In this document: piece after piece, positions 3-22,371 of the stretch
Layout: each line of letters starts with the position of its first letter
How positions within the stretch are numbered: position 1 is the first letter of the stretch
From: a virus
IMG/VR virus record: IMGVR_UViG_3300031722_000008
Location: 96,541-160,540 of that record
Reading direction: 5' to 3' (one strand)
Length of the DNA: 64,000 nt
The notes under the pieces: model-generated
What the model was told of the DNA's origin: nothing
Seen by the model: only the letters and a program-made list of their open reading frames with translations
The model's database searches: none
Program-made: the position numbers and the translations under genes

Positions 3-602
3 GGTGAATATAAATCCAAAAAAGAGCAAATGGAGAAAGTGGCATCATGTACCGATGTATCCGAAGAAGCTATAAAATTACTTGATGAAGCTATTGATAT
101 TAATGAAAAAATAAGCACAATTAAGAAAACATTAGATTCTCTTAATTCTTATAAAAAGAAGTCTGCATCAGCTAAAGAAATAATTGACAGGGTAAGCATA
201 GAAGATATTAGTGTTGCTATTGAGCAAATCGATGAGATTATATTATTGACAACTAATATTAAAAATATGAAAGATAGAAATGCCCGATTGAAAGAACTAC
301 TCAAAAAGAAATTTGAATTAGAGGAATTACCAAAAAGCGAAGATATTGATTCAGTTATTGAAAATTTAGATAAAGGAATAGAAATTCTAGAATCTCTATC
401 TAGAATAAAACCTGTTAATGATAAATATAAGAAAGAAATTTTAAGAAAAGAAAATGGAGAAAAGGTTATTGAAGATTTAGACAAAAAACATGATGACGTA
501 GTTGAAGAATACAAAAATGGATTACGTGAGTCAAAACGTTGCGAAGTATGTATGTCCGTAATGACAGAAGAACATATTCACAATATAGAAGAATATATGT
601 AG
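3..602 (+). CDS. SbcC/Rad50-like protein, N-terminal piece (5' truncated by window edge); coiled coil ending in CxxC zinc hook
   Basis: Frame is open from position 3 (GEYKSKKEQM...). Heptad-rich coiled coil ends RCEVCMSVMTEEH, like a Rad50 hook. A matching ABC C-terminal half lies at 5372-5974. Confidence 0.7.
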   Translation, partial: GEYKSKKEQMEKVASCTDVSEEAIKLLDEAIDINEKISTIKKTLDSLNSYKKKSASAKEIIDRVSIEDISVAIEQIDEIILLTTNIKNMKDRNARLKELLKKKFELEELPKSEDIDSVIENLDKGIEILESLSRIKPVNDKYKKEILRKENGEKVIEDLDKKHDDVVEEYKNGLRESKRCEVCMSVMTEEHIHNIEEYM

Positions 603-613
603 GAGGGTCAATT

Positions 614-3600
614 ATGGCATGCAAATTTTATCAGTTACACGATCATACAGAGAAAAGCTTAAATGATGGTATGATTAAAGTTAAAAAGCTTGCAAAGAAA
701 TTAAAAGAACAGGGCGTAGATAAATTTGCTGTTACTGAACATGGAGAAATGATGGATATGCCCGCAGCGTATTTAGCGCTTAAAGATGAAGATATCGAAC
801 TTATCGTTGGAATGGAAACATATGTTGCTCCAAGAAAAAGAAGTGATAAGGAAAAAAGCGAAGGTGATGATGCTAATTATCATCTAGTACTTCTTGCGGA
901 AAACAACGAAGGCTATGATAACCTTAAAATCCTTGCATCTGAAGCTGCACTGAACGGATTTTACTATAAGCCTAGAGTAGATAAGGAACTTCTTAGACAA
1001 TACCATAAGGGCATCATAGCATCAAGTGCTTGTCTTGGAGGAAGTATAAATCAATTCCTTTTAGAAGATAAATATGAAGAAGCTAAATTAGAGGCTCTTG
1101 AATATTTAGATATATTTGGTGAAGGGAATTTCTTCTTAGAACTTCAAAGGCATGGACTTAGAGAACAAGAGCAGATTGAGCCTATGATTCTTAGATTAAG
1201 TAGAGAAACTGGAATACCACTCATAGCAACTAATGATTGTCATTACCTAAATAAAGAAGATTGGGAAGCTCACGATATACTTATGGCAATTCAAGCAGGA
1301 ACAACTATTGATGATACTAAGAGAAAAATTTATACTTCTCATGAGTTTTATGTAAAGTCTCCCGAAGAAATGATTCATCTGTTTCGTGACGTACCCGAAG
1401 CTATAGAAAACACCGTAAGAATAGCAGATAGGTGTCACGTTGAATTAGAATTTGGAGTTAATAAAATACCACCATTCAAACTTCCAAATGGATACAAAGG
1501 CACGGAGAATGATTTTTTAAGGGAAATAGTTGAAGGCAATGCTAAAATAAAATATTCAGGAATATCAGAAGAAGTTCAAGAAAGAATAGATTTTGAACTT
1601 GAAGTAATTGAAAGAATGGGATATGTAAACTACTTCCTTATTAATTGGGACTTCTTTAGATTCTGTAGAGAGGGTACTTATGAAATAGAAGATGCTCCAA
1701 ATACTGATTGGGACCCAATACTAACAGGTCCTGGTAGAGGTTCGGGAGCTGGATCAATAGTTGCTTATTGTACTGATATTACTAAAATTGAACCACTCCA
1801 GTTCAATTTATTATTTGAAAGATTCTTATCGCCGGAAAGAGTATCAATGCCGGATATCGATAGTGATTTCGAAGATACTCGAAGACAAGAAGTTATTGAT
1901 TATGTTGTATATAAATATGGAAGAGAATGTATATCTCAAATAATAACTTTTGGAACACTAGCAGCGAGAGCAGTAATAAGAAGAGTGGGGAAAGCATTGG
2001 ATTATCCATACGCAGTATGTGACAAAATAGCAAAATCTATACCTGCAGAAGTTGGAATAACAATAGAAAAGGCACTGGCAGTAAATCAGTCACTTAGAAA
2101 AGCATATGATACTGATAAGAGTATAAAGCGCTTATTGGACTTCTCTATGCAATTAGAAGGTTTAGTTACTAGTTGTAGTACTCATGCGGCAGGAGTACTA
2201 ATAACTGATAAGAAAGGTGTTACAGCCCATGTTCCTTTATGGGAAAATAAAGGTGGAATTGTTGCTCAATTCTCTAAGGATTATATTGAGATGCTAGGAC
2301 TTCTTAAGATGGATTTCTTAGGACTTGGTACATTAGGTATTCTTGGTGATGCAAAAAGAATGATTAGAGCAAATCATGGAGTTAATATTGATTTTGATGA
2401 ATTATATAAACTACCAACAATGGAACCACTACAACTTATAAGGGATGGAAAGACTGAATGCTTATTCCAATTAAATGGAGCAGGTATGACAGCATTTATG
2501 AAAGAATTAAAGCCAAACAGTATAGAAGATATAATTCTAGGTATCTCTATGTACAGACCAGGACCTATGGCTGAAATACCAAAACTTCTATATAGTAAAA
2601 GAAATCCTAATAGTATCACATATGAGGTTGATGGACTTAAATATATTCTTGACCCTACTTATGGAAGTATTGTATATCAGGAACAATGTATGCAAATAGT
2701 TGTTGCGATAGCAGGATTCTCTAAGGCAGACAGCGATAACTTTAGGCGTATTATATCTAAGAAGAAATTAAAAGAAATGCCAAAACAACGTGAATGGTTC
2801 GTTCATGGAAGAAAGAAAGATGATTATGATTATGAAGGGCATCTTAGGCACTACAAAGCAGATATACTAGGAGGAGTAGCTTTAGGTCATAGCGAAGAGG
2901 CACTGAATAAGTTATTCGATAAGATGGTTGACTTCGCCGCTTATGCTTTCAATAAATCCCATGCTGCTGCTTATGCTTTTGTTGGATATTTAACTGCATG
3001 GTTTATGAAATATTATCCTGTAGAATTTATGGCTGCTAATCTTAATGCTGTTCAAAAGAATAGAGCCAAGATTGCGCGGTATATGAATTATGCAAGGAAA
3101 GAATTGAATCTCGAAATTTTAGAGCCTGATATAAATGAATCAGTAGAAAGATTTAAAGCTACAAAAGATGGAAAGATAATGTATACTCTATCAATAAAAG
3201 GAGCATCTATTGATTGTTTAAAGAGAATAGTCGAAGAAAGAGAAACTAATGGTAAATTCGAGAATCTTATCGATTTTATAGCTAGAACGAGAAATTTCCT
3301 AGATAAAAAGACTTATGAGGGATTAATAGGATCAGGAGCATTAAAATGTTTTGGAATAATAAAATCTCAACATTTAGCAGCACTTGATGATTTCTGGGAT
3401 GGATGCCTTAAGAAAACTAAAGATTCCGAAAAGAATGCTTTAAAGAAAAACAAAGACTTTAATTTCGAAGAAATATTGCTAGGAAAAATAGATGGATTAT
3501 TACCAAATATAAATGAATATCCTAAAGATATAGATTTAAGACTTGAAAAAGAGTTCCTAGGAATGTATCTTACTGATAATCCATTATACAGATATGCATA

Positions 3601-4165
3601 TACTATCAAGACTAGCAATAATTTTGAGTTATCTGATGTTGATTATGAAGTTGATGAAGAGACTGGAATTATAATGATGTCGAATGATTCAGTGAGAGAT
3701 AGACAGAAAGTTAGATTTGTAACCATACTAAATGATGTAGCTGAATTAACAACAAAGAAAAAGACTTTAATGGCAAGGCTAGAATTAGAGGATTTAACAG
3801 GAATAGCTGGAGCTTTAATTTGGCCATCAACGTATGATTCAATCAAAAGTAAATTAAAGAAAAATGAAATCTACATGTGTCATGGCTACTTAATGGTATC
3901 ATCAGATGAAGCACCAACCATTGTCGTTGAGGATATGGAACTTATGGAAGAAATGGTTACAGAAAGAGCAATCATTTCAGTTGATAGTAAAGAAGATGCT
4001 GTTGATATCATTAATTACATTAACGATACTGATATGGCAAAAGGTATGACTCCGGTTTATCTAGTTTACAATAATCTCCAAACATTACTAACTAGGAATT
4101 ATTGGATAAACTTAAATCATATGAATCAAAAATATGAAAATAAAATTAAAATAAAGATTTGGTAG
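614..4165 (+). CDS. dnaE: DNA polymerase III alpha subunit (DnaE-type)
   Basis: PHP motifs LHDHTEKSLNDG, FYYKPRVD and ATNDCHY; GPGRGSGAGS; LLFERFLSPERVSMPDIDSDF; FNKSHAAAY; C-terminal OB fold. Start moved to ATG 614 behind RBS AGGAGG. Confidence 0.97.
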   Translation: MACKFYQLHDHTEKSLNDGMIKVKKLAKKLKEQGVDKFAVTEHGEMMDMPAAYLALKDEDIELIVGMETYVAPRKRSDKEKSEGDDANYHLVLLAENNEGYDNLKILASEAALNGFYYKPRVDKELLRQYHKGIIASSACLGGSINQFLLEDKYEEAKLEALEYLDIFGEGNFFLELQRHGLREQEQIEPMILRLSRETGIPLIATNDCHYLNKEDWEAHDILMAIQAGTTIDDTKRKIYTSHEFYVKSPEEMIHLFRDVPEAIENTVRIADRCHVELEFGVNKIPPFKLPNGYKGTENDFLREIVEGNAKIKYSGISEEVQERIDFELEVIERMGYVNYFLINWDFFRFCREGTYEIEDAPNTDWDPILTGPGRGSGAGSIVAYCTDITKIEPLQFNLLFERFLSPERVSMPDIDSDFEDTRRQEVIDYVVYKYGRECISQIITFGTLAARAVIRRVGKALDYPYAVCDKIAKSIPAEVGITIEKALAVNQSLRKAYDTDKSIKRLLDFSMQLEGLVTSCSTHAAGVLITDKKGVTAHVPLWENKGGIVAQFSKDYIEMLGLLKMDFLGLGTLGILGDAKRMIRANHGVNIDFDELYKLPTMEPLQLIRDGKTECLFQLNGAGMTAFMKELKPNSIEDIILGISMYRPGPMAEIPKLLYSKRNPNSITYEVDGLKYILDPTYGSIVYQEQCMQIVVAIAGFSKADSDNFRRIISKKKLKEMPKQREWFVHGRKKDDYDYEGHLRHYKADILGGVALGHSEEALNKLFDKMVDFAAYAFNKSHAAAYAFVGYLTAWFMKYYPVEFMAANLNAVQKNRAKIARYMNYARKELNLEILEPDINESVERFKATKDGKIMYTLSIKGASIDCLKRIVEERETNGKFENLIDFIARTRNFLDKKTYEGLIGSGALKCFGIIKSQHLAALDDFWDGCLKKTKDSEKNALKKNKDFNFEEILLGKIDGLLPNINEYPKDIDLRLEKEFLGMYLTDNPLYRYAYTIKTSNNFELSDVDYEVDEETGIIMMSNDSVRDRQKVRFVTILNDVAELTTKKKTLMARLELEDLTGIAGALIWPSTYDSIKSKLKKNEIYMCHGYLMVSSDEAPTIVVEDMELMEEMVTERAIISVDSKEDAVDIINYINDTDMAKGMTPVYLVYNNLQTLLTRNYWINLNHMNQKYENKIKIKIW

Positions 4166-5991: not shown

Positions 5992-6750
5992 ATGAATAAT
6001 AAGAAAGTTTCGACACTAATAGTCATATCATTATTGGCAACCTATAGTGTTGGCGCTACTTATGAATCGCATAGGCAAAGCGTAATTAAACAAGCAACCA
6101 TAGAAAGAGAAGAAACACTTAGAGAGAACATGGAAAAAGAATTAAGCGACGCACGCATTGAAAGTGATACTAATAAGGAAAAGTTAGCCGAATTAGAATC
6201 TCAAGTGCAAGAAAAAACCAATGCATTGGAGTTAGCCAGGCGAAGTATTGAACTCCTTAATACAAGAGTAGAGTTTGATTATAATGATGTAACAAAACCT
6301 TCCCATGCAACTAATATTGATATGAGAAGGGTACTTAAAGGAACTAAAATGTATGATATAGCTGATGCAATAGTTTCTGCTGAGGAGCAATACAAGAATG
6401 TGAATGCTTTTCTCCTTGCAGGAATAATTGCTCAAGAATCAAGTTGGGGAGGAAGTGATAGAGCTGTATATGATAACAACTTAACTGGTTATGGTGTTTA
6501 TAATCCTGCAAGCAGGGGAATTAATCCTAATAGCAGATACCAAAGTGTTATGAATACAGCCAAATTACTTAGTCGAGATTATCTAACCCCAGGAGGAGAA
6601 CACTACAACGGAGTTAGCTTAATAGCTGTGAATGAAAAGTACTGCTATCAAAAGGATATGAAGACTGTTGATTATAGATGGACATCTGGAATATCAAGTA
6701 TAGCTAATGACTTAGTGAAAAAAGCAAATAGTTATAAGAAGGAGAGATAG
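5992..6750 (+). CDS. membrane-anchored or secreted glucosaminidase (GH73-like) peptidoglycan hydrolase
   Basis: N-terminal hydrophobic segment, coiled coil, then VNAFLLAGIIAQESSWGGSDRAVYDNNLTGYG and a terminal Y...W motif. Confidence 0.8.
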   Translation: MNNKKVSTLIVISLLATYSVGATYESHRQSVIKQATIEREETLRENMEKELSDARIESDTNKEKLAELESQVQEKTNALELARRSIELLNTRVEFDYNDVTKPSHATNIDMRRVLKGTKMYDIADAIVSAEEQYKNVNAFLLAGIIAQESSWGGSDRAVYDNNLTGYGVYNPASRGINPNSRYQSVMNTAKLLSRDYLTPGGEHYNGVSLIAVNEKYCYQKDMKTVDYRWTSGISSIANDLVKKANSYKKER

Positions 6751-6755
6751 TTGAT

Positions 6756-7214
6756 ATGGAATTTTGGGTAGATAAATTCACTTTTGAAATAAAAGATTTA
6801 ATTGAAAAAAAGAGAAAACTTATAGCAGAAAGAGATAAGATAAGAGGTAATTTCAAAGCTGCTGAAGCATATTTTACCAAGATAGGCAGTAAGCAAGAAA
6901 TCCAACTTGGAGCAGAAAGAATGTTAGAATTATCTAAGAAATTTTTAGAGATAGATAATGAGATTTCAGATATAGATATAGTAATTGCATCTAATCTTGA
7001 AATCTACCTAGGCAATTTTACTGCAAGAGTTAAAATGCCAGATAGATTGAATGATGCTGGTGATTTAATAAGACATGATTGTGTATATGCAGTTCCGTTT
7101 AAATCCGGCGATGAAAACTTAAAGGAAGTTGTACCTGACGATATATGGTTCTTGAAACTTATCAAAACTGCATTTAAAGCTACCAATGTTACATTTATTG
7201 AAAAGGAAGAGTAG
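6756..7214 (+). CDS. hypothetical protein
   Basis: 152-aa ORF with RBS, tightly packed in the operon. Confidence 0.7.
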   Translation: MEFWVDKFTFEIKDLIEKKRKLIAERDKIRGNFKAAEAYFTKIGSKQEIQLGAERMLELSKKFLEIDNEISDIDIVIASNLEIYLGNFTARVKMPDRLNDAGDLIRHDCVYAVPFKSGDENLKEVVPDDIWFLKLIKTAFKATNVTFIEKEE

Positions 7215-8999: not shown

Positions 9000-9944
9000 A
9001 TGATAATTAATAATGAAAACTTCGGAGAAGTTGTAGCAAAAATGTTAAGGGCGGCATCAGAATATCACAAGGCAGAGAGATTTGATACTTGTGGTATTAT
9101 TTTTGACAAAGATGATAACTCATTAAAACTAATCTCAGTTTGGTTCTTTGTTAGAGTTACAAATGTAAAGATTGAAATTGATATTCCTAGAGGAAAGCCA
9201 TTTTATAATGTTTTAGGAAAAGTATGGACAGAAATTCCTTATGAGAAACCAGTTGAATATTACATGGAAAAAAGAGCTGAAAGTTATAACTTCGTAGGAA
9301 GAACAGAATACTATGCAAATAATATATTAAATATTATCAACAAGGAAACTGAGAAAGTATTGGATTTAAGAGCAAGATATGTATTTGTTCAAGGATTTTT
9401 ACCTCAAGGCTGTGCAGCAATAACTTTCAAAGAAGAAAATGGAAAGCCAGTATTTAAAGCGCCTAAGATACCAAAGAAATTTGTCATTGATGAAAATTCA
9501 GCAATTCCTGAAAAATTTGTTCAACCTGGGATTACTTATGCATGTACATTAAATGATTGCGGAGATACTGTAACTCTTGATGTAATAACAAAATTCGGAA
9601 AAACTAGATCAGGTATGTTCGTTTCAGAAGTTAAGTATGATAGTAAATGCCTACCTAGATTAAATAATTTAGAAATAATTCACCCTGAACTAACTGTATG
9701 TTCTAATATATTAGAAACATCAGATGAAGAAATTAATATGCCACCAATACATCTAGGTGCTATGTTATTGTATGATTTGCTTAAAATACTTTTAATTTGC
9801 AAAACATCTAAATTCAACCTACATTATCAAGAAAAAATAAATGATGATATATGGATAGAATCTGTACCAGAAGATGATGATGACGCAAAAGTATCTATAT
9901 TCTTCCCTCCTTATGATTACTATAAAAATATTCAAAGAGGATAA
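9000..9944 (+). CDS. hypothetical protein, possibly a divergent DnaN (beta-clamp)-like fold
   Basis: N-terminus MIINNENFGEVVAKMLRA...GIIFDKDDNSLKLIS and C-terminus IHLGAMLLYDLLKIL...KFNLHY...IWIES...KVSIFFP follow the beta/alpha pattern of DnaN domains I and III. By eye only. Confidence 0.4.
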   Translation: MIINNENFGEVVAKMLRAASEYHKAERFDTCGIIFDKDDNSLKLISVWFFVRVTNVKIEIDIPRGKPFYNVLGKVWTEIPYEKPVEYYMEKRAESYNFVGRTEYYANNILNIINKETEKVLDLRARYVFVQGFLPQGCAAITFKEENGKPVFKAPKIPKKFVIDENSAIPEKFVQPGITYACTLNDCGDTVTLDVITKFGKTRSGMFVSEVKYDSKCLPRLNNLEIIHPELTVCSNILETSDEEINMPPIHLGAMLLYDLLKILLICKTSKFNLHYQEKINDDIWIESVPEDDDDAKVSIFFPPYDYYKNIQRG

Positions 9945-9948
9945 ATAA

Positions 9949-10494
9949 ATGCAAGAGGATTACCTAACAATGATTATAGCTAAAGACAAAAACTTATGGC
10001 CTAATCCTGAGAATATAGATGTTGAAGATATAGATAAATCCATATTTAACTACTTGGAAGAAAGAGAGCATTTAAATACTCCTAGGAATCAAGAGAAATT
10101 CTCAGAAACAGTTAACGATTTTTATCACATGGCACAAGAAGAATTTTTCGAAGAGAACGAAGAATACTTGATTCCTTCGCCACAAATAATTAGCGATATG
10201 ATAGATGAAGAAAACATCAATATCATATCGCTATTTGTATTAGATACAGAAAAAAGAAATAGCGAGGATAGGATAGAGAATATAATTAATATTTATATAA
10301 AAGAAATATCCTCTCAACTATTATATTCTGTCATAGAAGCATTAGATACTCTAGGACTACCCTTCTCCGATAAAGATCATCCAAATGATAAGGCAGTATC
10401 GGAGGTGAGAAATAAATGCTTTTATGACCCTTATCAAATAAGAATGTTTGGAGATGAAATATATGACAGAAGGAAAATTGATAGAAATTGTTAG
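9949..10494 (+). CDS. acidic QxxMF-family paralog 1
   Basis: VIEALDTLGLPF ... FYDPYQIRMFGDEI. Confidence 0.7.
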   Translation: MQEDYLTMIIAKDKNLWPNPENIDVEDIDKSIFNYLEEREHLNTPRNQEKFSETVNDFYHMAQEEFFEENEEYLIPSPQIISDMIDEENINIISLFVLDTEKRNSEDRIENIINIYIKEISSQLLYSVIEALDTLGLPFSDKDHPNDKAVSEVRNKCFYDPYQIRMFGDEIYDRRKIDRNC

Positions 10495-11086
10495 CGATAA
10501 ATTACCTGATGGAGTTCAGGATTTTGACAATATAGAAAATAGAATGGTTTTGTCATGGACTGGTGATATGCCAGAAAATATGAAAGAAGTAAATGAATAT
10601 ATAATAGGGGATATATATAAGGAAGAGTGCATAAATAAACAAGGTATCCCTGAATTCGATGATCTTTTGGAAAGTGTTGATATTCTTAATTCTGAATGTA
10701 TGGCAGAGATAGCTCTCATACAAGTAGTTCAAGAATATAATGAACAAGGTATTGATATTGGAGATGTATCGGAAGAGAAACTCTCAGAAGATACAGCAGA
10801 GAAGGAAGCTGGAGTCCTAGACTTCTATAGTTATAATGGAATGATTGATACTAAACAAGAAATATTTAATTATGCTGAAGAAAAAGGTATGAGTTTCATG
10901 ATATCAAATCATACAGAGGAGTATGATAATTTTACATGGGGAATTGAAATGTCAGAAGAATCACAACTAGACATTATAGTTAATGGACCTCAAATACCAA
11001 TGTTTCCAGAATTAGCTGTAGATGAATGTGAAAATGATTTTTGTAGATACGGTGGTTTCTTTCTACATGTATCGGAGGCTGTATAA
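10463..11086 (+). CDS. acidic QxxMF-family paralog 2
   Basis: GIPEFDDL ... IFNYAEEKGMSF ... IVNGPQIPMFPEL. Start placed at ATG 10463 behind GGAG. Confidence 0.7.
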   Translation: MTEGKLIEIVSDKLPDGVQDFDNIENRMVLSWTGDMPENMKEVNEYIIGDIYKEECINKQGIPEFDDLLESVDILNSECMAEIALIQVVQEYNEQGIDIGDVSEEKLSEDTAEKEAGVLDFYSYNGMIDTKQEIFNYAEEKGMSFMISNHTEEYDNFTWGIEMSEESQLDIIVNGPQIPMFPELAVDECENDFCRYGGFFLHVSEAV

Positions 11087-11791
11087 ATGAACGATATTAT
11101 TATAAGATCTGACGAAGATGAAATTGTAGACAAAAGACTAGCTGAATTAACAAATCTACTTATCGTGGATAGTGATGAGTCTTCAGAAAAATATGTCAAG
11201 GAATTAATTGAGGAATTAAATAATATACCAAAATCAGGAATACCATGCTTAAGTGATATTCTTCAACCAATGATAGATAATAACGATACTGTTATTGATA
11301 TTATCATGAAAACCCTAATAGTAAATGATAGAGTTGATATGCCAACAGATTGTGATAGAGGGGCTACAGACAGATCATCATGTGCAGAATGCGAAGAACT
11401 CTGCGAGTGCTATGAAGATTTAGATTACGAGATAAGACTTGATGAATTTCCACAATGTGATGATACTCACTTGGCATACTTATTATATTACATTCTTGTG
11501 AATACAGGTATGAGTATGATTATGGAAAAGGATGATTACAATGCGTTCCCAGACTTCTGTATGCATTTTGATTACGATAATGAGGGAATTTTATCAGACT
11601 ACTTCACTGGAACAGAAAATAAAAACAAGGTAATAGTAAATCATGCTCAACAAATGATGTTCTCTGAAATATTTATGGAAGAGAATAATCAGAATGGGAG
11701 TTGCTATTGTTATGGGCAAAACTTCGCAATAATGTTTGATAATTACAATATACAGGAAGAAAGATTAGCCTTAAAGGAAGGAGGTAAATAA
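11087..11791 (+). CDS. acidic QxxMF-family paralog 3, with Cys-rich insert
   Basis: GIPCLSDI ... CAECEELCEC ... YILVNTGMSM ... IVNHAQQMMFSEI. Confidence 0.7.
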   Translation: MNDIIIRSDEDEIVDKRLAELTNLLIVDSDESSEKYVKELIEELNNIPKSGIPCLSDILQPMIDNNDTVIDIIMKTLIVNDRVDMPTDCDRGATDRSSCAECEELCECYEDLDYEIRLDEFPQCDDTHLAYLLYYILVNTGMSMIMEKDDYNAFPDFCMHFDYDNEGILSDYFTGTENKNKVIVNHAQQMMFSEIFMEENNQNGSCYCYGQNFAIMFDNYNIQEERLALKEGGK

Positions 11792-12417
11792 TGTCAATAC
11801 AATTAAGAGAGGATATTTTCTCAGAATATATAGATGAAAAAAATCCAGAAATAATATATACAGCGAATCCAAATTCTTTACTTATGATAAAGGATATCAT
11901 TCTGGAACAACTTAATAACAGAGGAGAGGCTTCGTTAGAATGGATAATAAGTGATATTCATTTTGGTAATGCAAGAGTATTTGAAAATATAGCAGCTAAA
12001 GGTTTTGATACAGGGAAATTTGATATAGGTAACTTTGATAATTATGGTGATGGAATTACTGAAATGGCTGATGATATAGAACAATGGTATTTTGTTGAAG
12101 ATGAATTAACAGAATTAGAAAACCTAATATATGAGTCAGCTAAACAATTTGACTTACCTGTATATATGACAGCAGAGCAGGTAGATGAATACCCAACTTT
12201 TATAAGAAGATTCTCTGAAGAAAATTCTTATCTGGACTGCATAGCTAAAGAAAAAGAGATAAAGGTCAATGCATTCCATGCACAAATTCCAATGTTTGAT
12301 GATCTATTCGATAACTGCGGAAGTTGTTTTTATGGAAGAGAAAATGTGCTATTAATTGATGAATACAATAAAAATAGGAATTATGGATTAATGGAGGGTA
12401 GCGATGAAAGAAGATAA
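11791..12417 (+). CDS. acidic QxxMF-family paralog 4
   Basis: IYESAKQFDLPV ... VNAFHAQIPMFDDL. Confidence 0.7.
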   Translation: MSIQLREDIFSEYIDEKNPEIIYTANPNSLLMIKDIILEQLNNRGEASLEWIISDIHFGNARVFENIAAKGFDTGKFDIGNFDNYGDGITEMADDIEQWYFVEDELTELENLIYESAKQFDLPVYMTAEQVDEYPTFIRRFSEENSYLDCIAKEKEIKVNAFHAQIPMFDDLFDNCGSCFYGRENVLLIDEYNKNRNYGLMEGSDERR

Positions 12418-13090
12418 ATCTCTCCGGATAATAAATCCAGACATCGATATGCTTGAAATGCAATCAGAAATTATAGGCATAAATGAAGATAATTTCGAAA
12501 GAGATAAGAACACTATATTGGAAATGTATAAATCGGAATATACGAAATATAAGGATCGCGCAAACATACCTCTTTTTTCTGATATAGAAAATTCTGTTCT
12601 CGCTTATAATTATGACAAGTGTTATGAAATATCAGTTATTGAATTTGAAACATTTGATAAAGCAGAAGTTATGAATACATTTTATAGCTCTGCTTATTGT
12701 TCCACAATGGACATAAATGATAGAATACAGGCGATACTAGATCAGAAGACAGGTAATATGATGAATGATATAGGGTGGTCACATTCCGAAGCTATAAGAA
12801 TGTGTATAAGGAATTCACTAAATGAATTGGGTGTTATTTATGAAGATAATGATCCTTGTAATCCATTCCTCCGAAATATATTTGCAGATTTTAATATTTT
12901 CAGAATAGTAGCTAATAATGCTCAAATAGTAATGTTTCCGGACATACATAGACAGGAGTATATGTATGATGCGGACTTAATCAATGATACTTTAGATGAT
13001 ATTACAAACTATGTCATAGAAAGAAGAACACAGAGCGCAATAAAAGATAGGTTGCTTGGTTCTGGGGGTGATAAAAATGTCCCAAAGTAA
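12404..13090 (+). CDS. acidic QxxMF-family paralog 5
   Basis: NIPLFSDI ... IRNSLNELGVIY ... VANNAQIVMFPDI. Confidence 0.7.
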   Translation: MKEDKSLRIINPDIDMLEMQSEIIGINEDNFERDKNTILEMYKSEYTKYKDRANIPLFSDIENSVLAYNYDKCYEISVIEFETFDKAEVMNTFYSSAYCSTMDINDRIQAILDQKTGNMMNDIGWSHSEAIRMCIRNSLNELGVIYEDNDPCNPFLRNIFADFNIFRIVANNAQIVMFPDIHRQEYMYDADLINDTLDDITNYVIERRTQSAIKDRLLGSGGDKNVPK

Positions 13091-13436
13091 AGAGATAACT
13101 AAATCTATGCTCCGAAACAGAGGACTAATTATGCAAGATACGGAAAACAATACTTTTGTTGAAATCGTATCATCAAATTATATAGTTTGTATAAATCGAA
13201 GAATAAAAAAGGGACAAACTATAGTTCCTGAATATTACGAAATCAGCGACGAGTGCTTGGAGTTCATTGCTGACCATGGAATAAAAACTGTTACATGGAA
13301 CGGCATGATATTAAATGCTATGTCAGCTCTAGATTTATCATTAAAAGATGTACTTGAAGATGAAGGTTTTATTTTTGAATATAACCGAGAAATAGTGAAT
13401 CCTTATCAGCAGATTATGTTCGAGGATTTAAATTAA
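13077..13436 (+). CDS. QxxMF-family paralog 6
   Basis: IVPEYYEI ... LKDVLEDEGFIF ... IVNPYQQIMFEDLN*. Start placed at ATG 13077 behind GGGGGTG. Confidence 0.7.
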   Translation: MSQSKEITKSMLRNRGLIMQDTENNTFVEIVSSNYIVCINRRIKKGQTIVPEYYEISDECLEFIADHGIKTVTWNGMILNAMSALDLSLKDVLEDEGFIFEYNREIVNPYQQIMFEDLN

Positions 13437-13450
13437 GGAAGGTGTAAATA

Positions 13451-13825
13451 ATGAGTAAAAGCATTATAGAAATAGAAGATAGTCAGCTTCAAAAAGAAGC
13501 TAGATGGGAGGACGTAGAAAAGATTATACTCAACACATACAATGAACTTTTTGATAAGGATAAGAAAGAACCGAGCATAAGCAGAGTATTCGATGAAATT
13601 AAATATAAGTTTGAAACTGAAGCATATGACATTATCTACGGAATATCAGCAGAAGACATTACAGAAGAAATGATAATGGTATGTCTTACGAAAAAGGGCT
13701 GTGTATTCACATGGTGCGGAACAGTATGTTGTGAAGCGCAACAAGTGATGTTTGGGGAGATATACGAACAATTAGAAGGAGATTTCATCAGCTACAATAA
13801 TAATATCATAGGTCTTCATGAGTGA
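13451..13825 (+). CDS. acidic QxxMF-family paralog 7
   Basis: EPSISRV ... IMVCLTKKGCVF ... VCCEAQQVMFGEI. Confidence 0.7.
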   Translation: MSKSIIEIEDSQLQKEARWEDVEKIILNTYNELFDKDKKEPSISRVFDEIKYKFETEAYDIIYGISAEDITEEMIMVCLTKKGCVFTWCGTVCCEAQQVMFGEIYEQLEGDFISYNNNIIGLHE

Positions 13826-14471
13826 TATAGATAAAAGTGATGTTGTATTTAAATCTCTGTCATGTTTTAAATCCATGTTAAAATATGACAGAGTTAATCC
13901 CCAAATATTTCTTCATAATAAATCAGCTTATATGCTCGGAGAAAAAACGAAAGGAAAGATAGAATTTTTAAATAGGAGCTTTGAAACTTTAGTGGGTATA
14001 CCATTCAATAAAGGTTTCGAGTATTCAGAAAATATAACAAACAAGATTTTAAGTGAGAATATCAATATAATTAATAAGTTAGCCAGGACTTATTGCGAAA
14101 CTCTATTTTATATTGATAAGGTAAAGTTAATTAAATTCATTGACGATAATTATAATTCTTTAGCAAAGTTAAATAAAATGAAATTAACTATAACAACTGT
14201 GCCTCATATAAGGTTTAATTTTAAGCCTATAAAAAAATCTACTTCAGTGTTTGAGAGTGAATATATTATTTCAGAACCTGTAAGAGTGAGTCCAAACTTT
14301 AGAGTAAAAGATGAAGAGATTGTTTTAAATTCTCTTCTTTTTTATGAAGTTATAAATAATGAACTTTTTTCACAAATAATAAAAATGGAGATAAACAAAG
14401 AAAAGAAATTTATAAGATTAGCTTGTGTTAATGATAATGTAAAAGTTAAGTTTATAATTAACCAAAGATAA
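13818..14471 (+). CDS. hypothetical protein, possibly a short divergent DnaN-like clamp subunit
   Basis: C-terminal half FYIDKVKLIKFID...KMKLTI...EEIVLNSLLFYEVIN...IIKMEIN...FIRLA...VKFIINQR parallels DnaN domain III. By eye only. Confidence 0.4.
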   Translation: MSDIDKSDVVFKSLSCFKSMLKYDRVNPQIFLHNKSAYMLGEKTKGKIEFLNRSFETLVGIPFNKGFEYSENITNKILSENINIINKLARTYCETLFYIDKVKLIKFIDDNYNSLAKLNKMKLTITTVPHIRFNFKPIKKSTSVFESEYIISEPVRVSPNFRVKDEEIVLNSLLFYEVINNELFSQIIKMEINKEKKFIRLACVNDNVKVKFIINQR

Positions 14472-14552
14472 AGTCTAGAAATTGCTTAACGTGTTCGGCA
14501 AATAATGGTATCATTAACATTGAACACTAAAAAGAGATGGGGGATTGGCACA

Positions 14553-17500
14553 ATGGATAAACTAGAATGGTACGAGAGCGTTGAAAATAAGATCAATGAA
14601 GATATTGATTTGTTTTATGGTGAGTTTTATAGCGGAGCAAAACCTAAAAAGATAGGACCTGATAGCTATAGAATTAATCCATGTCCAGTATGTGGACATT
14701 CTAATAGTTGCACATTAACAGGAAATACTGTTCATTGTTTCAGTGGTGAATGTGGATGGAAAGGAACACATATTACGGCATGGTATGAATATGCAAAAGA
14801 AAAGCTCAATTTGTCACTTTACGAGGCGGTGGCGAAGTTAGAAAAATTCACAGGATATAAGTTTCCAGCTGGAACAAAAGAAGAAATAGAAGCTTATGAG
14901 AAGCATCAGAAACAACAAGCAATTTTGAGAATTTCAGAAGATTTTTACCACAAACAGCTTTTAATATGTAATTTGACTTTTCCTTTCAAAGATAAGAGAT
15001 ACACACCACTTGATTATATGTTACAAGTAAGAAAAAGAAAGATAGAAACCTTGAAGGATTTTAAAGTTGGATTTGCTATTAATTACTTTGGATTAAGAAG
15101 TGAATTATTGGAACAAGGATTTACGAAAGAAGAAATTAAAGAAGGAAAAGCATGGCAACCAGAAGGAACTTTTGTGTTCTTCTATAGGCATCCATTAACA
15201 AAGGATATTGTAAGGACAAATATTAAAAATCCATTTGGGTCAAAATCTAAAGAAAAAAATGAGTTAGGTCAAAGTATAGATGGCGATGTTATTGTTGGAT
15301 ATTCTACTGGAAGTAAGTTTATGTATTTTCCTCCGAATTTCTCCTTCGATAAAGATATTACTATAGTTGAAGGGGAGCATGATGTATTTGCTGCCTATGA
15401 AAATGGATTTAATGTAGCTGGTGTTGGAGGACAAATAGAAAGAGAATACCAATTATCTGTATTGGATAAGGCAAAAGAAAATATAACCTTTCATACGATG
15501 TATGATAATGATGATGCTGGAAGTAAATATACTGAATTCACTAATGAATATTTTGCTGACAGGCCAGTAAAGAAAATAAAATATGATGAAGCATTCAATG
15601 ATCCTGATGAATATTTCAGAGAGTGCGAAAATCACAAATCCCTTGAAGAATTATTTGAATTTGCAGAAACATTAACTACTGACAAATATAAGATTCGCAG
15701 ACAAGGTAACTTATGGACTGTAGCAACGAGAGAAAGAAAACTTGAATTTACCATGAAAGGCAAAAATGATAAAGGTTCTTTCAGTGGAAATGCTGTATAT
15801 TATTATAATGGTCTATTAAGCGATAGAGATGATAATATACAACTCGTAAAATGCAAAGCTAAGATAAAGCCATTAAACTTTTATTTATATGACCATATAG
15901 AAGAGTATTTTAATAGTAATTTAGATAAGAAAAGCATCGATGAATTAATATTGATATATTCAATGTCAGCGAAGAAAGATGAGATAATTAAAAGATTAGC
16001 CGAAATGTTATTTGAGTCAGAAAATGATGAGTCTATTATAAATAACATGAAAGTTCAATTAAGTAAGCATGTAACGAATCATGAGAATGTTGTTGATGAA
16101 ATACTTAAAGAGGTTAATGATATACAGAATAAGGCTAATACAACATCGTTATCGAACATACCTAAAATGCGTGTTGGACAATACTACAATGTGAGAAACG
16201 GTGATGCTTATATGTATTTTACTTATGTAAAAATCGATGGTGATATAAAAAGAAAATTACCTTTCCTGCTTAGGAATGATGGAACACTAATAAGACTCGA
16301 TCTATTAAAAAGAAAGGATTCTCAATGCTTGCTTCTTATTGATAATAAGTATGAACTTCCATGGGAAATAAATGATGCTATTCTAGAACTTAATGAGTGT
16401 TGCTTGACTCAAGAATGGGTAGAGAAATATAAAGATGGCAAAATATCAGATAGTGAATTAGAACCTTCAATACTTATAAAGAGAATAGAGGGTTATATTA
16501 GGAAATTTTATTATACTAATGATTCAAATATCTACAAGGTGCTATCTCTCTATATATATTCAACCTACTCATATGAATTATTTGCACAAATACCATATCT
16601 TTATTTAAATGGTTCTAAGGGTTCAGGTAAGTCAATTCTAGATGAATGCATTAGATTATTATCCTTTAATTCAAAGATGGCTGTAGACATAACTGAAGCA
16701 GCATTATTCAGAACACTATCTGTTGAAGGAGGAGTATTAATACTTGATGAGCAGGAAAACTTAAATTCTAAAAATGCGAGAACTACTGATAGTGGTATGG
16801 CAGCAATACTGAAAGGTGGCTACGCAAGAAGTGGTGCAGTATATAGAGTTAACAATGAAAAAGGGGGCATAGTAGAGAAATATACTATCTACGGACCTAA
16901 GGTTATATCCAACATAATGGGAATGGATGATGTAATTGAGGATAGATGTATAATAATTGAAACATATGCCCTTAAATTGACTAAAGAAACTAAAATGGAA
17001 GATCCTAAATATTACGCGGAAGAAAGATTAGATGAAATAAGAGAACTCACAAGTAAATGTGCGATCTCTGCCCTGAAAAATTTCAAGACGCTATATGATA
17101 TATATAATGGTAACTTATTCGAAACAGGGAATGCACGTTTATCGCAAATACTAACTCCTATATTAGCTGTAGCTAAATTGGTTGATTTGAGAGAAAAAGA
17201 AAATGCATTATCTACTAATCCAGATATAAAAGATTATATCGGAGAATATGAAAGATCATTAATGGATTATTTTGTTATACTGAATGAGCTTAAAAAGAAT
17301 ACTGCTCAAAGTACTCCAGAGGGTATAATAAAATCTTCTGTATCTACAGTTGCAAAAGAACTCTGGGGATTAGTTCCACCTCACAATATAGAATTTATAG
17401 ATTCGTCATCACATAAATATACCGAAGCTATAAAATGCGATAAGGAGCAAGGCTGGTTCGAAATCAATGTACTTCACTTTAAATGTTTCATCGAAGAAGT

Positions 17501-17765
17501 TAAACCTGGAGAAACAGCTTATGCTAGATATATTCCTAAATGGATTAAGACTGTTTTCAAAATCGATGCATGCGATATAAAAAGAAAAGCTGTGCATATT
17601 GAAAATGAAGATTTGATGAAAGAATTTAAAGGTAATGTAAAACCTAAGGTAAACTTTTATAGGTTTTATTTTAAAGACTATATAAACATGGATGAAGCAT
17701 TTTTCGGCAACAGCAAAGAAAATGATTCAGCTATTAAGACCGATAAAGGGGCAGAACTATTTTAG
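14553..17765 (+). CDS. primase-helicase fusion (Zn finger + TOPRIM + C-terminal P-loop ATPase)
   Basis: CPVCGH...HCFSGEC; IVEGEHD, YDNDDAG, DPDEY; YLNGSKGSGKS and VLILDEQE. Start moved to ATG 14553 behind a GGGG RBS. Confidence 0.88.
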   Translation: MDKLEWYESVENKINEDIDLFYGEFYSGAKPKKIGPDSYRINPCPVCGHSNSCTLTGNTVHCFSGECGWKGTHITAWYEYAKEKLNLSLYEAVAKLEKFTGYKFPAGTKEEIEAYEKHQKQQAILRISEDFYHKQLLICNLTFPFKDKRYTPLDYMLQVRKRKIETLKDFKVGFAINYFGLRSELLEQGFTKEEIKEGKAWQPEGTFVFFYRHPLTKDIVRTNIKNPFGSKSKEKNELGQSIDGDVIVGYSTGSKFMYFPPNFSFDKDITIVEGEHDVFAAYENGFNVAGVGGQIEREYQLSVLDKAKENITFHTMYDNDDAGSKYTEFTNEYFADRPVKKIKYDEAFNDPDEYFRECENHKSLEELFEFAETLTTDKYKIRRQGNLWTVATRERKLEFTMKGKNDKGSFSGNAVYYYNGLLSDRDDNIQLVKCKAKIKPLNFYLYDHIEEYFNSNLDKKSIDELILIYSMSAKKDEIIKRLAEMLFESENDESIINNMKVQLSKHVTNHENVVDEILKEVNDIQNKANTTSLSNIPKMRVGQYYNVRNGDAYMYFTYVKIDGDIKRKLPFLLRNDGTLIRLDLLKRKDSQCLLLIDNKYELPWEINDAILELNECCLTQEWVEKYKDGKISDSELEPSILIKRIEGYIRKFYYTNDSNIYKVLSLYIYSTYSYELFAQIPYLYLNGSKGSGKSILDECIRLLSFNSKMAVDITEAALFRTLSVEGGVLILDEQENLNSKNARTTDSGMAAILKGGYARSGAVYRVNNEKGGIVEKYTIYGPKVISNIMGMDDVIEDRCIIIETYALKLTKETKMEDPKYYAEERLDEIRELTSKCAISALKNFKTLYDIYNGNLFETGNARLSQILTPILAVAKLVDLREKENALSTNPDIKDYIGEYERSLMDYFVILNELKKNTAQSTPEGIIKSSVSTVAKELWGLVPPHNIEFIDSSSHKYTEAIKCDKEQGWFEINVLHFKCFIEEVKPGETAYARYIPKWIKTVFKIDACDIKRKAVHIENEDLMKEFKGNVKPKVNFYRFYFKDYINMDEAFFGNSKENDSAIKTDKGAELF

Positions 17766-20388: not shown

Positions 20389-22371
20389 TTGTTAGTACTT
20401 AAAGTCGAGGGGAAATTCAAGATACTGAAAATAGAATGCTCAGCTGGCATGGCCAGCGACGTTCTATTTTCGCTTTCTGAAATCCCAAAAGAAGTTGATA
20501 CAACAAATAACAATGTCTGTACAATACTTATCGACATGAAATATATCGATAAGTGTAACACTACTCTTAATAAATATAAGGGCAGTGTGAAATTTGATAG
20601 TAGTTTTCTTGAATGGAAGAAAAAATTCCATAAGAAAACACCAATACTAATCAGAAGCGCAGTTATAAATACCAAAATATATAGAAGTCCTGATTTCGAA
20701 GTACCACATCAAGCAATAGAAGATGCAACGAAATACTTTTTTAAACCTGCAGTAAATATGAAATCTTATAAAGACAAGAAGTGGGATGGATATGTAAAAT
20801 TATACGAGAGAAGATTCTATAAGTTCCCAACAGGACTAATAGACAGAGTTTTAGAGGTATTTGATAAAGAAGAAATACCATATACATTAGAACATGTGCA
20901 TGATGAGAGTCCACCTAAAGAATTTGATTGGGAACCAAAAGAACTATTTGTTCCATCGGAAGACCAATTAGAAGCTGTTGATATTTGCATGAAATATGGA
21001 AGAGGAGTAGTTAAGGCAGCCACAGGATTTGGTAAAACTGCAATGCTTGCGAGATACTTAACTGCAAGTCATGGTGTTCCTACCCTCTTTATAGCCAATA
21101 AGAAGATACTTTTAGATGATGCAGCCAATGACTTTAGAAATGGAATAGAGGGTCTCCTTGAGGGTGATATAGCTCAAATTAAGGATGGTAAGTTTGGTGA
21201 TATTAATTTGAGAAAGAAAGAAAGTTTTACTCAATATGATTTAGATAATGCACTGTCAGATAAAAAGATAATCGTAGCAACAATACAAAGTCTACATGCA
21301 AGAGTGGAGGATACAAAAACTAGGGGTGCATTAATTCATTGGCTTCATAATACTTGTAAGTTTGTGATGATTGATGAGAGCCAAGCTATCAATGATAAGC
21401 AATGGCAAGATGTATTGAATGAAGTAAGAGCGCCATATAGAATTGCCCTATCTGCTACACCAAGACGTACAGATGGAGCTACATTACTCATAGCAGCACA
21501 ATCAGGACCACTAATATATGAAACTACTGCTGATGAACAAATAAGAAAAGGTAGACTCTGTGATTTAAAAATTGATTGTTGGCCATTCGATCATAAGCTA
21601 TATAACGACAATGACAAGGAACTTAACTATGCAGAAGTGTATACTCAATGTATAGTTGAGAATGAAGAGAGAAATAGATTCTTAATTGAGAGAACTTTAG
21701 AAATGTTAGATGAGGAAAGGCAAGTATTAATGTTAGTCCTTAGGATAGAACATGGACATATACTAAAAGAAATGCTACTAGAGAAAGGATTGAGTTTAGA
21801 TGAAGTTAACTTCGTATGGGGGGATACACCAGATAAGGTTAGAACAAAAGCCGTTGAAGACTTTAGAAAAGGGAAATACAAAATACTTATCGGAAGCACC
21901 GTTGCTGATGCCGGACTCAATATCCCCTCCATCTCTGGAGTCATACTCTGCGGAGCTGGAAATTCTGACATCACGCATATACAACGGATTGGGCGTGGAT
22001 CAAGAACTTTTGACTACCTCAAAAACTGGGGCTTCGAACCTAAATTTATCCATGATGCAAATGGAGAAAAGATTACGAGAATCATTGATCCAATTGATAT
22101 TAACATCGCCTTTTTTAAGAAGCAATCTAAAAATAGATACTATAATGCCTGTGAAGAGTTCGGAGCCGATAGAGTCCATCTGATAGGTGTTGACGCGTCT
22201 ATATTTAGATACAGAAGTAAAAAGACGGAAAGCAAAAAAGATATCGATGACCAAAAAGCATTAGAAGATATGTTTAATGCATTCAGTGGCGTAGATAATG
22301 AGGAAACCGAGGAAAATACTATGAGTCAAAATGATGCAGTTGATAATTTCATAAGTATATTCAAAAGGTAG
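20389..22371 (+). CDS. superfamily 2 DNA helicase (UvsW/XPB-like)
   Basis: AATGFGKT, MIDESQ, ALSATP, DAGLNIP, QRIGRGSR. Confidence 0.92.
   Translation: MLVLKVEGKFKILKIECSAGMASDVLFSLSEIPKEVDTTNNNVCTILIDMKYIDKCNTTLNKYKGSVKFDSSFLEWKKKFHKKTPILIRSAVINTKIYRSPDFEVPHQAIEDATKYFFKPAVNMKSYKDKKWDGYVKLYERRFYKFPTGLIDRVLEVFDKEEIPYTLEHVHDESPPKEFDWEPKELFVPSEDQLEAVDICMKYGRGVVKAATGFGKTAMLARYLTASHGVPTLFIANKKILLDDAANDFRNGIEGLLEGDIAQIKDGKFGDINLRKKESFTQYDLDNALSDKKIIVATIQSLHARVEDTKTRGALIHWLHNTCKFVMIDESQAINDKQWQDVLNEVRAPYRIALSATPRRTDGATLLIAAQSGPLIYETTADEQIRKGRLCDLKIDCWPFDHKLYNDNDKELNYAEVYTQCIVENEERNRFLIERTLEMLDEERQVLMLVLRIEHGHILKEMLLEKGLSLDEVNFVWGDTPDKVRTKAVEDFRKGKYKILIGSTVADAGLNIPSISGVILCGAGNSDITHIQRIGRGSRTFDYLKNWGFEPKFIHDANGEKITRIIDPIDINIAFFKKQSKNRYYNACEEFGADRVHLIGVDASIFRYRSKKTESKKDIDDQKALEDMFNAFSGVDNEETEENTMSQNDAVDNFISIFKR

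Follow-up and report, generated by a model that had tools for sequence, protein, structure and literature searches.

What partner might be shared by seven consecutive phage genes, each of which encodes a protein with a Q-x-x-M-F peptide near its C-terminus? The question is raised by a 64,000-nucleotide stretch of viral DNA (hereafter, the window), namely bases 96,541-160,540 of IMG/VR record IMGVR_UViG_3300031722_000008. The record is 160,540 bp long, has direct terminal repeats and a G+C content of about 31%, and derives from an uncultured gut phage; its phage genes include those for tail sheath and major head proteins. The seven genes, referred to here as g1 to g7, lie between a gene for a 314-residue protein and a gene for a 217-residue protein (Table 1). 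We tentatively propose, at a little under an even chance, that Qxx[ML]F is a docking peptide for the phage's own sliding clamp, which would be the 217-residue protein. The data suggest, for this phage, a private clamp served by a dedicated group of clients.

In the mechanism we envisage, each array protein would consist of an acidic, helical body that terminates in a beta-hairpin and, no more than 3-4 residues beyond it, a flexible tail that bears the motif. Through the tail peptide, the protein is predicted to dock onto a sliding clamp, in its hydrophobic pocket; the divergent clamp encoded immediately downstream, in the same coupled operon, is the most likely one. This clamp would carry 6-8 alternative clients on replicating phage DNA. 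We read the array proteins as clamp clients because an invariant, apparently exposed Qxx[M/L]F is found on 6-8 co-translated paralogs directly before the clamp gene; what we infer are the binding of the peptide to a clamp, the choice of the clamp, and the roles of the acidic bodies.

Occurrence and conservation of the motif

The original prediction, made from the window alone, listed seven QxxMF peptides; all seven are present, in frame, with exactly one in each gene. By chance, given the amino-acid composition of the phage, 0.044 QxxMF would be expected per 1300 residues. Across the 196 non-overlapping open reading frames of the genome (49,537 amino acids), Qxx[ML]F is found only in the seven array proteins and in NrdD, the anaerobic ribonucleotide reductase, and QxxLF occurs in none of these frames. 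The claim that QxxMF is not seen elsewhere in the window also held, save for a single further match at 45625 on the minus strand; this match is missing from the list of frames of at least 60 amino acids, i.e., it sits in a short frame.

Single sequences proved too weak to assess paralogy, and relatives were therefore gathered from metagenomic contigs, labeled L005-L012 and L015-L018. A 51%-identical homologue of g3 (P0002) led to the 11.9-kb contig L005; a full HMMER scan of 1.84 billion representatives yielded 12 homologues of the 217-residue protein, and a profile of the 314-residue protein found 19. Contigs L006-L012 and L015-L018 hold the same cassette as the window; L008 and L017 come from one phage, and the DNA of L010 and L016 is 78% identical. 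The motif was counted in L005-L012, L015 and L016, i.e., in about ten lineages, whose clamps diverge down to an E-value of 1e-13. All 61 complete array proteins in these loci carry exactly one Qxx[ML]F. The g7 family has 21 members found so far, and the 14 intact ones that were fetched and read all keep Q..MF. Another g7-family member, P0055, on a 756-bp ENA contig, has no likeness to the others beyond residue 93 and does not have the motif, in a manner that suggests a frameshifted or chimeric assembly.

A tabulation of the first 46 proteins shows Q and F without exception, and at position 4 either M (41) or L (5). Position 7 is D or E in 36 of the 46 and position 8 is L or I in 35, and the aromatic residue that follows does not come before position 9. 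The extended consensus thus reads hydrophobic-hydrophobic-x-N-x-A-Q-x-x-[M/L]-F-x-[D/E]-[L/I]-[Y/F], and continues with acidic residues. The g1 orthologues in L007, L008, L010, L015 and L016 retain QxxMF, and the g6 C-terminus reads ...INP[YF]Q..MF[ED]DL in seven orthologues (alignment A9). The motif is held despite fast divergence of the array: between the window and L005, the array orthologues are 52-71% identical, as against 83% for the primase, and the bodies of orthologous array proteins share 22-45% identity with those of more distant lineages. In L011, the most distant lineage, four of six paralogs carry QxxLF instead, as does the fragment in L012. Such a joint M-to-L shift in several paralogs of one phage fits a single, shared binding partner. 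The clamp-like protein and the 314-residue protein, by comparison, never carry Qxx[ML]F at any of the loci.

A repeat at the level of the DNA, rather than a peptide motif, was considered and ruled out. The Q and F codons vary synonymously (CAA/CAG, TTT/TTC), the x positions vary, and the motif lies 4 to 50 codons before the stop codon; that is, selection acts on the peptide and not on a DNA word.

Beyond these contigs the cassette is elusive. Among 50,697 phage records searched with megablast and tblastn, we found no isolated phage resembling this one and no relative of the clamp, and the primase gave only one fragment match, at 28%. Scans of IMG/VR and GTDB genomes with the primase, DnaE and 314-residue protein profiles revealed no close relatives and no prophage copy. 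Pfam and PHROGs contain nothing above threshold for the seven array proteins and both flanking genes. The paralog, clamp and 314-residue families are without a curated family, and they are found only in raw metagenome assemblies. The distant DnaE-encoding phages L003 and L004 have no array. In L004, a 225-residue protein encoded directly after dnaE (L004:12426-13103), with an N-terminal helix-turn-helix of the MerR/excisionase type, has QLTMFDL near its C-terminus; as a single case, this could be chance.

Relationship among the array proteins

The array had been proposed to be an old family of seven paralogs. In an all-against-all comparison of single sequences (BLAST, phmmer, hhalign), only the pair g3-g4 was significant, and the other pairs aligned over 12-35 columns around the motif. 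Paralogy was tested by hhalign comparison of profiles built from orthologues, with 56 reversed-alignment controls, the best of which reached 2.1% probability (score 21.7). The profiles of g2 to g5 match one another with 91-99.4% probability over 141-194 columns; the highest value is that of g3-g4 (99.4% over 194 columns), and g2 matches g3, g4 and g5 with 96-98%. The short proteins g6 and g7 are joined to these through g5, which matches g2 at 96.9%, g3 at 95.9%, g6 at 93.5% and g7 at 94.7%. Together with gX, an eighth gene described below, g5, g6 and g7 match mutually at 93-99.7% over 37-103 columns. Thus, by profile comparison, g2 to g7 are true paralogs, old and strongly diverged (91-99.7% over 37-194 columns, controls at most 2.1%). 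The proposal stands for these six; for g1, which matches g4, g5 and g6 at 18-39% (score 28-32, versus 15 for its own controls), membership in the family is marginal.

In all lineages, each paralog is represented by orthologues of its own and the order is unchanged; the duplications must therefore predate the divergence of these phages. The gX gene encodes 134-141 residues and lies between g6 and g7 in three contigs (L010:8921-9331, L016:7270-7674 and L011:2269-2694); its product is a close paralog of g7 (hhalign 99.7%). Complete cassettes accordingly hold 7 to 8 array genes, which answers the question of copy-number variation in related phages.

Predicted structure of the array proteins

Is the motif exposed, or is it buried in a fold? 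In the AlphaFold2 model of g7 (m314be2fcb974; 12-row alignment), four helices and a beta-hairpin (residues 86-93) form a body at residues 12-96, with predicted local distance difference test (pLDDT) values of 74-91 by block. The motif, residues 97-101, and all that follows it have pLDDT below 50. The model of g4 (ma671e5f6e2b4; four rows) has a helical body at residues 7-141, with pLDDT of 85-95, while from residue 142 to the end (208), a stretch that holds the motif (165-169), the values drop to 29-48. The motif of either model begins 3-4 residues after a strand, which in g7 is the last strand of the confident body and in g4 is itself of low confidence. Because the motif sits in a low-confidence tail past the confident body, it looks exposed, in a flexible segment outside the predicted fold. 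Alignment A7 also shows the two weaker motifs that had been noted in the same order in the array proteins. One falls at the start of helix 2 of the g7 model and the other on the helix-Gly-strand element ahead of the hairpin; both are structural and support a common fold.

Searches with the g7 and g4 models in Foldseek (PDB), VIA-align and Atlas gave no match above noise. The best VIA-align score for g7 is Z 6.2, for FurB (root-mean-square deviation 2.6, 65 residues aligned), and many winged-helix proteins follow at Z 5-6, all below the noise mark of about 8; Foldseek E-values exceed 1. The best Z for g4, 5.4, is also below that mark. No significant match to PDB sequences was found for the profiles of the clamp, the 314-residue protein, g4/g3, g6 or g7. 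The suggestion that the shared element is an acidic winged helix thus gains a helical body with a hairpin and weak winged-helix matches, but the motif is not predicted to be a part of that fold.

The models also bear on whether the motif might be structural, i.e., part of a C-terminal element that packs back against its own body or joins the paralogs in homo- or hetero-oligomers, without any client role. The conserved flanks of the motif are in line with such a role, as is a conserved segment (GSC[FY].YG...) that follows it in g2-g5 and g7. On the other hand, confidence in the g7 and g4 models is lowest at the motif and the tail, and almost nothing follows the motif in g1 and g6. Moreover, the core positions change freely from paralog to paralog while Q, [M/L] and F never do, and a common partner would more readily account for the M-to-L change shared by paralogs of one phage. 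We consider a purely structural role quite improbable.

The protein encoded downstream of the array

The ESM Atlas holds a model of the exact 217-residue sequence, with a predicted template-modeling score (pTM) of 0.76. Residues 5-217 of this model match clusters of phage and bacterial beta clamps, PCNA and Rad9 with template-modeling scores of 0.68-0.71; the matched clusters carry PF00712/PF02767/PF02768, PF00705/PF02747 and PF04139. On the strength of this model, the protein very probably has a divergent sliding-clamp fold, with two domains per protomer. Residues P62, Y112, K120, K139, S141 and E191 are conserved in its family. The standard DnaN families PF00712 and PF02768 are absent from the phage genome.

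The array proteins might dock not onto this clamp but onto the beta clamp of the host (DnaN), so as to ride on it, hijack it or block it. In form, Q-x-x-[L/M]-F, the motif is bacterial (it includes the QxxLF of L011 and L012) and does not follow the PCNA-interacting protein (PIP) box; the phage polymerase is a C-family DnaE, a kind normally paired with DnaN; and no clamp loader of the phage was found with PF13177 or PF00004. These points favor the host clamp. Yet the array always lies in one operon with the phage's own clamp, its 6-8 distinct and individually conserved paralogs exceed what a decoy would need, and the phage DnaE itself lacks the motif. We thus regard DnaN as having a small chance of being the target. 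The original prediction had gone further, to decoys of the host clamp, DNA mimics and anti-defense factors loaded onto a clamp; nothing in our analysis supports these roles.

A structure prediction for the complex of the clamp family (alignment A8) with full-length g6 (A9) scored 0.01, relative to a mark of 0.32; it was run without controls and counts neither for nor against binding.

The first gene of the operon and other candidate partners

The 314-residue protein is always directly upstream of the array, including in L010, L015, L016, L017 and L018, and is 36-82% identical among the related phages. The Atlas model of it is of poor quality (pTM 0.39) and hints weakly, at low confidence, at a beta-clamp domain; hhalign comparison with the clamp family gave probabilities of 6% and then 3%. 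The idea that it is a second clamp has no support from sequence and weak hints from structure.

This protein is one of several that could dock the peptide in place of a clamp, along with the primase-helicase, DnaE, and the host RNA polymerase or single-stranded DNA-binding protein (SSB). It is the first gene product of the coupled operon in all lineages and has diverged less than the paralogs, its fold is unassigned, and membership in the operon favors the clamp no more than it does such neighbors. None of these candidates, however, has a known pocket for Qxx[ML]F, as clamps do; the likeness of the motif to clamp-binding peptides would then be a coincidence. A partner of this kind appears unlikely to us.

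The weight of evidence for a clamp

What, then, supports docking onto the phage clamp? The evidence for clamp binding in general, as originally proposed, is circumstantial: the motif lies outside the predicted fold, is invariant across lineages, matches a published consensus, and is encoded next to a protein with a clamp fold. The binding itself is predicted.

Several observations weigh against this reading. First, the pentapeptide has conserved flanks (N at -3, an acidic residue at +6, L/I at +7 and an aromatic residue at +8), and a further conserved segment follows it in g2-g5 and g7. Conservation thus extends past the length of a classical clamp-binding pentapeptide, and the element could fold, or could pair with something else. 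Second, the motif is of the bacterial beta-clamp type, yet the phage clamp has the two-domain size of PCNA or gp45. Third, the low pLDDT of the motif and tail may stem in part from shallow alignments (4-12 rows). Fourth, the clamp assignment comes from one predicted model (ESM Atlas) and its structural matches, with no support from a sequence family: the 217-residue protein has no sequence match in Pfam, PHROGs or PDB, and none of the 13 family members has a Pfam match. Fifth, neither PF13177 nor PF00004 identifies a clamp loader in the whole genome; PF00004 has no match, and PF13177 has only a 14-bit P-loop match, at genome position 10368-10514. A Pfam scan of this kind leaves room for a diverged loader, or for use of the host's. 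Lastly, DnaE would be expected to be the prime client, yet it lacks Qxx[LM]F both at the usual internal site and at the C-terminus, and tethering of the polymerase must therefore differ here.

Two side observations on the replication proteins, namely this absence of Qxx[LM]F from DnaE and the ...LF-COOH end of the primase-helicase (see below), both fit the reading of the array proteins as clamp clients.

Comparison with known clamp systems

The bacterial clamp-binding consensus is QL[SD]LF, and the Mor/MuC family of phage Mu uses Qx[D/E][L/M]F (PMC12867686). As in the array, clients of the bacterial beta clamp carry Q-x-x-[L/M]-F near a terminus or in a flexible segment of proteins that are unrelated or diverged, and phage proteins make use of it. 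The array is unlike these clients in that 6-8 paralogs are encoded in one operon, M is strongly preferred over L, the flanks are also conserved (N at -3 and [DE][LI][YF] at +6 to +8), and the adjoining clamp is a two-domain phage protein rather than DnaN; here, in addition, clamp binding is only predicted.

In phage T4, the gp45 clamp carries the polymerase (gp43), ligase, gp33 and gp55 by way of C-terminal clamp-binding tails, and gp33 is a small, acidic, helical protein with a three-residue linker ahead of its tail (PMC7892883). The phage considered here is likewise predicted to encode a clamp of about 220 residues per protomer that holds several clients through short C-terminal peptides on short linkers. 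The paralogs resemble gp33 in body size, charge and the short linker, but not in sequence, and there is no significant fold match. More broadly, gp45, gp33 and gp55 have no sequence similarity to the proteins described here, the T4 tails are not Q-x-x-M-F, and the T4 clients are unrelated proteins scattered in the genome, in contrast to an array of paralogs. T4 also has a clamp loader, gp44/62, whereas none was found here with PF13177 or PF00004. The body of a gp33-type co-activator binds the beta-flap of RNA polymerase. The PIP box that binds PCNA has the form Qxx[ILM]xx[FY][FY]. The motif of the array shares with it the Q at position 1 and the hydrophobic M/L at position 4, and in both cases the clamp protomers have two domains. 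Positions 7-8 are nevertheless [D/E][L/I] here and not two aromatic residues, and position 5 is always F, which is a trait of the bacterial motif.

In large phages, it is common to find a clamp gene too diverged to be recognized by routine annotation (Kazlauskas and Venclovas 2011, PMC3201878). The same study reports that the C-terminal regions of C-family polymerases in phages are divergent, and that Clostridium phage c-st yielded no processivity factor (PMC3201878). The family described here differs from the remote phage clamps of that study in that it has 12 representatives, no detectable sequence link to any clamp family, and fixed, motif-bearing neighbors.

What might the acidic bodies do? 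Their charge argues against DNA binding. By way of speculation, the bodies could be adaptors that recruit RNA polymerase or other machines. A more specific scenario is that a lineage of large gut phages pairs a private, diverged clamp with 6-8 acidic adaptors, which arose by gene duplication and all plug into it through one Qxx[M/L]F peptide; the result would be a 'tool belt', in which each body recruits a different host or phage machine, for example for replication-coupled late transcription, as with T4 gp33/gp55, or for fork protection. We view this scenario as possible, but rather doubtful.

A clamp with peptide-tethered clients is a known kind of system; what is new is a fixed array of paralogs joined to a private clamp that is an orphan in sequence. 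To our knowledge, and from searches of the full-text literature, no conserved operon has been described in which a clamp gene is preceded by duplicated and individually kept clients. If the peptide does bind the neighboring clamp, it would define a new clamp family that sequence methods have missed, provide seven natural ligands with which to map the clamp pocket, and raise the question of what seven acidic adaptors bring to the phage replication fork. With its obvious point mutants, the array is a clean and inexpensive test case of binding between peptide and clamp.

Organization of the operon and replication genes

The window contains a replication module on the plus strand, which comprises a DnaE-type Pol III alpha, a Zn-finger/Toprim primase with a P-loop part, and an SNF2/DEAD helicase (Table 1). 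Across the related phages, the operon keeps both its translational coupling and its order: the 314-residue protein, 6-8 motif proteins, the clamp, and the primase-helicase.

Table 1. Positions, in the window, of the array genes and of the genes around them
Feature	Position	Strand	Length (aa)	Net charge	Motif and position	Remarks
DnaE-type Pol III alpha	539-4165	+	1208			PHP, alpha, finger, HHH and OB domains; C-family
First operon gene	9000-9944	+	314			Fold unassigned; no Pfam/PHROG match
g1	9949-10494	+	181	-22	QIRMF 10435-10449	Motif 14 residues from C-terminus
g2	10463-11086	+	~207	~-38	QIPMF 10991-11005	Alternative start TTG 10448
g3	11087-11791	+	234	-34	QQMMF 11648-11662	Cys-rich insert; conserved GSCY.YG after motif
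g4	11791-12417	+	208	-26	QIPMF 12283-12297	
g5	12404-13090	+	228	-17	QIVMF 12923-12937	Links long (g2-g4) with short (g6, g7) paralogs
g6	13077-13436	+	119		QQIMF 13407-13421	Motif four residues from C-terminus; start ATG 13077
g7	13451-13825	+	124	-14	QQVMF 13739-13753	
Sliding-clamp-fold protein (predicted)	13818-14471	+	217			Start overlaps g7 by 8 nucleotides
Zn-finger/Toprim primase fused to P-loop helicase-like part	14505-17765	+	1086			Toprim_2, phrog_239
SNF2/DEAD helicase	20389-22371	+				

The array genes had been described as coupled and acidic, and both descriptions are borne out. Junctions range from a 47-nucleotide overlap to a 14-nucleotide gap, the ribosome-binding sites are mostly of the GGAGG type, and the net charges of the seven proteins range from -7 to -38. 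The stretch from 9000 to at least 14471 is one coupled unit, which probably extends through the primase gene. Most likely, g6 starts at the ATG in Table 1 and not at the start listed earlier, because the resulting length fits the orthologues. Similarly, g2 probably starts at ATG 10463, because GGAG lies 9 nucleotides upstream. This likely ribosome-binding site and start fall inside the codons for the motif and tail of g1 (QIRMFGDEIY; window 10435-10465), and the sequence of the g1 tail would thus be constrained by translational coupling as well.

Wherever the end of the primase-helicase is known (five lineages: window 17676-17765; L005, L010, L016 and L017), a variable polar linker precedes a terminal ...LF-COOH; the last residues in the five phages are GAELF, EQGLF, DDQLF, ENQLF and DMPLF. 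Such an end resembles a terminal docking tail of a second type. A 280-residue Pam3_Gp34-like protein (PF23977, E-value 1e-16), encoded at genome position 6312-7154, outside the window (L019:813-1655), ends in ...GKDGELF-COOH, which resembles the primase tail ...DKGAELF. Genome-wide, [ML]F occurs within the last six residues only of the primase, this Pam3_Gp34-like protein, g6, and two hydrophobic, membrane-like open reading frames.

Four lineages share the DnaE C-terminus ...[IL]-[KQ]-[IT]-[WY]-COOH. The DnaE gene of L015 encodes 1599 residues and includes an intein with a LAGLIDADG domain. Lastly, a Cys-rich insert (C..., SSCAECEELCEC) is present in g3 and its orthologues at window 11340-11420, i.e., at residues ~85-112, in addition to Cys residues after the motif (GSCYCYG); judging from the sequence, these Cys residues may form a metal site.

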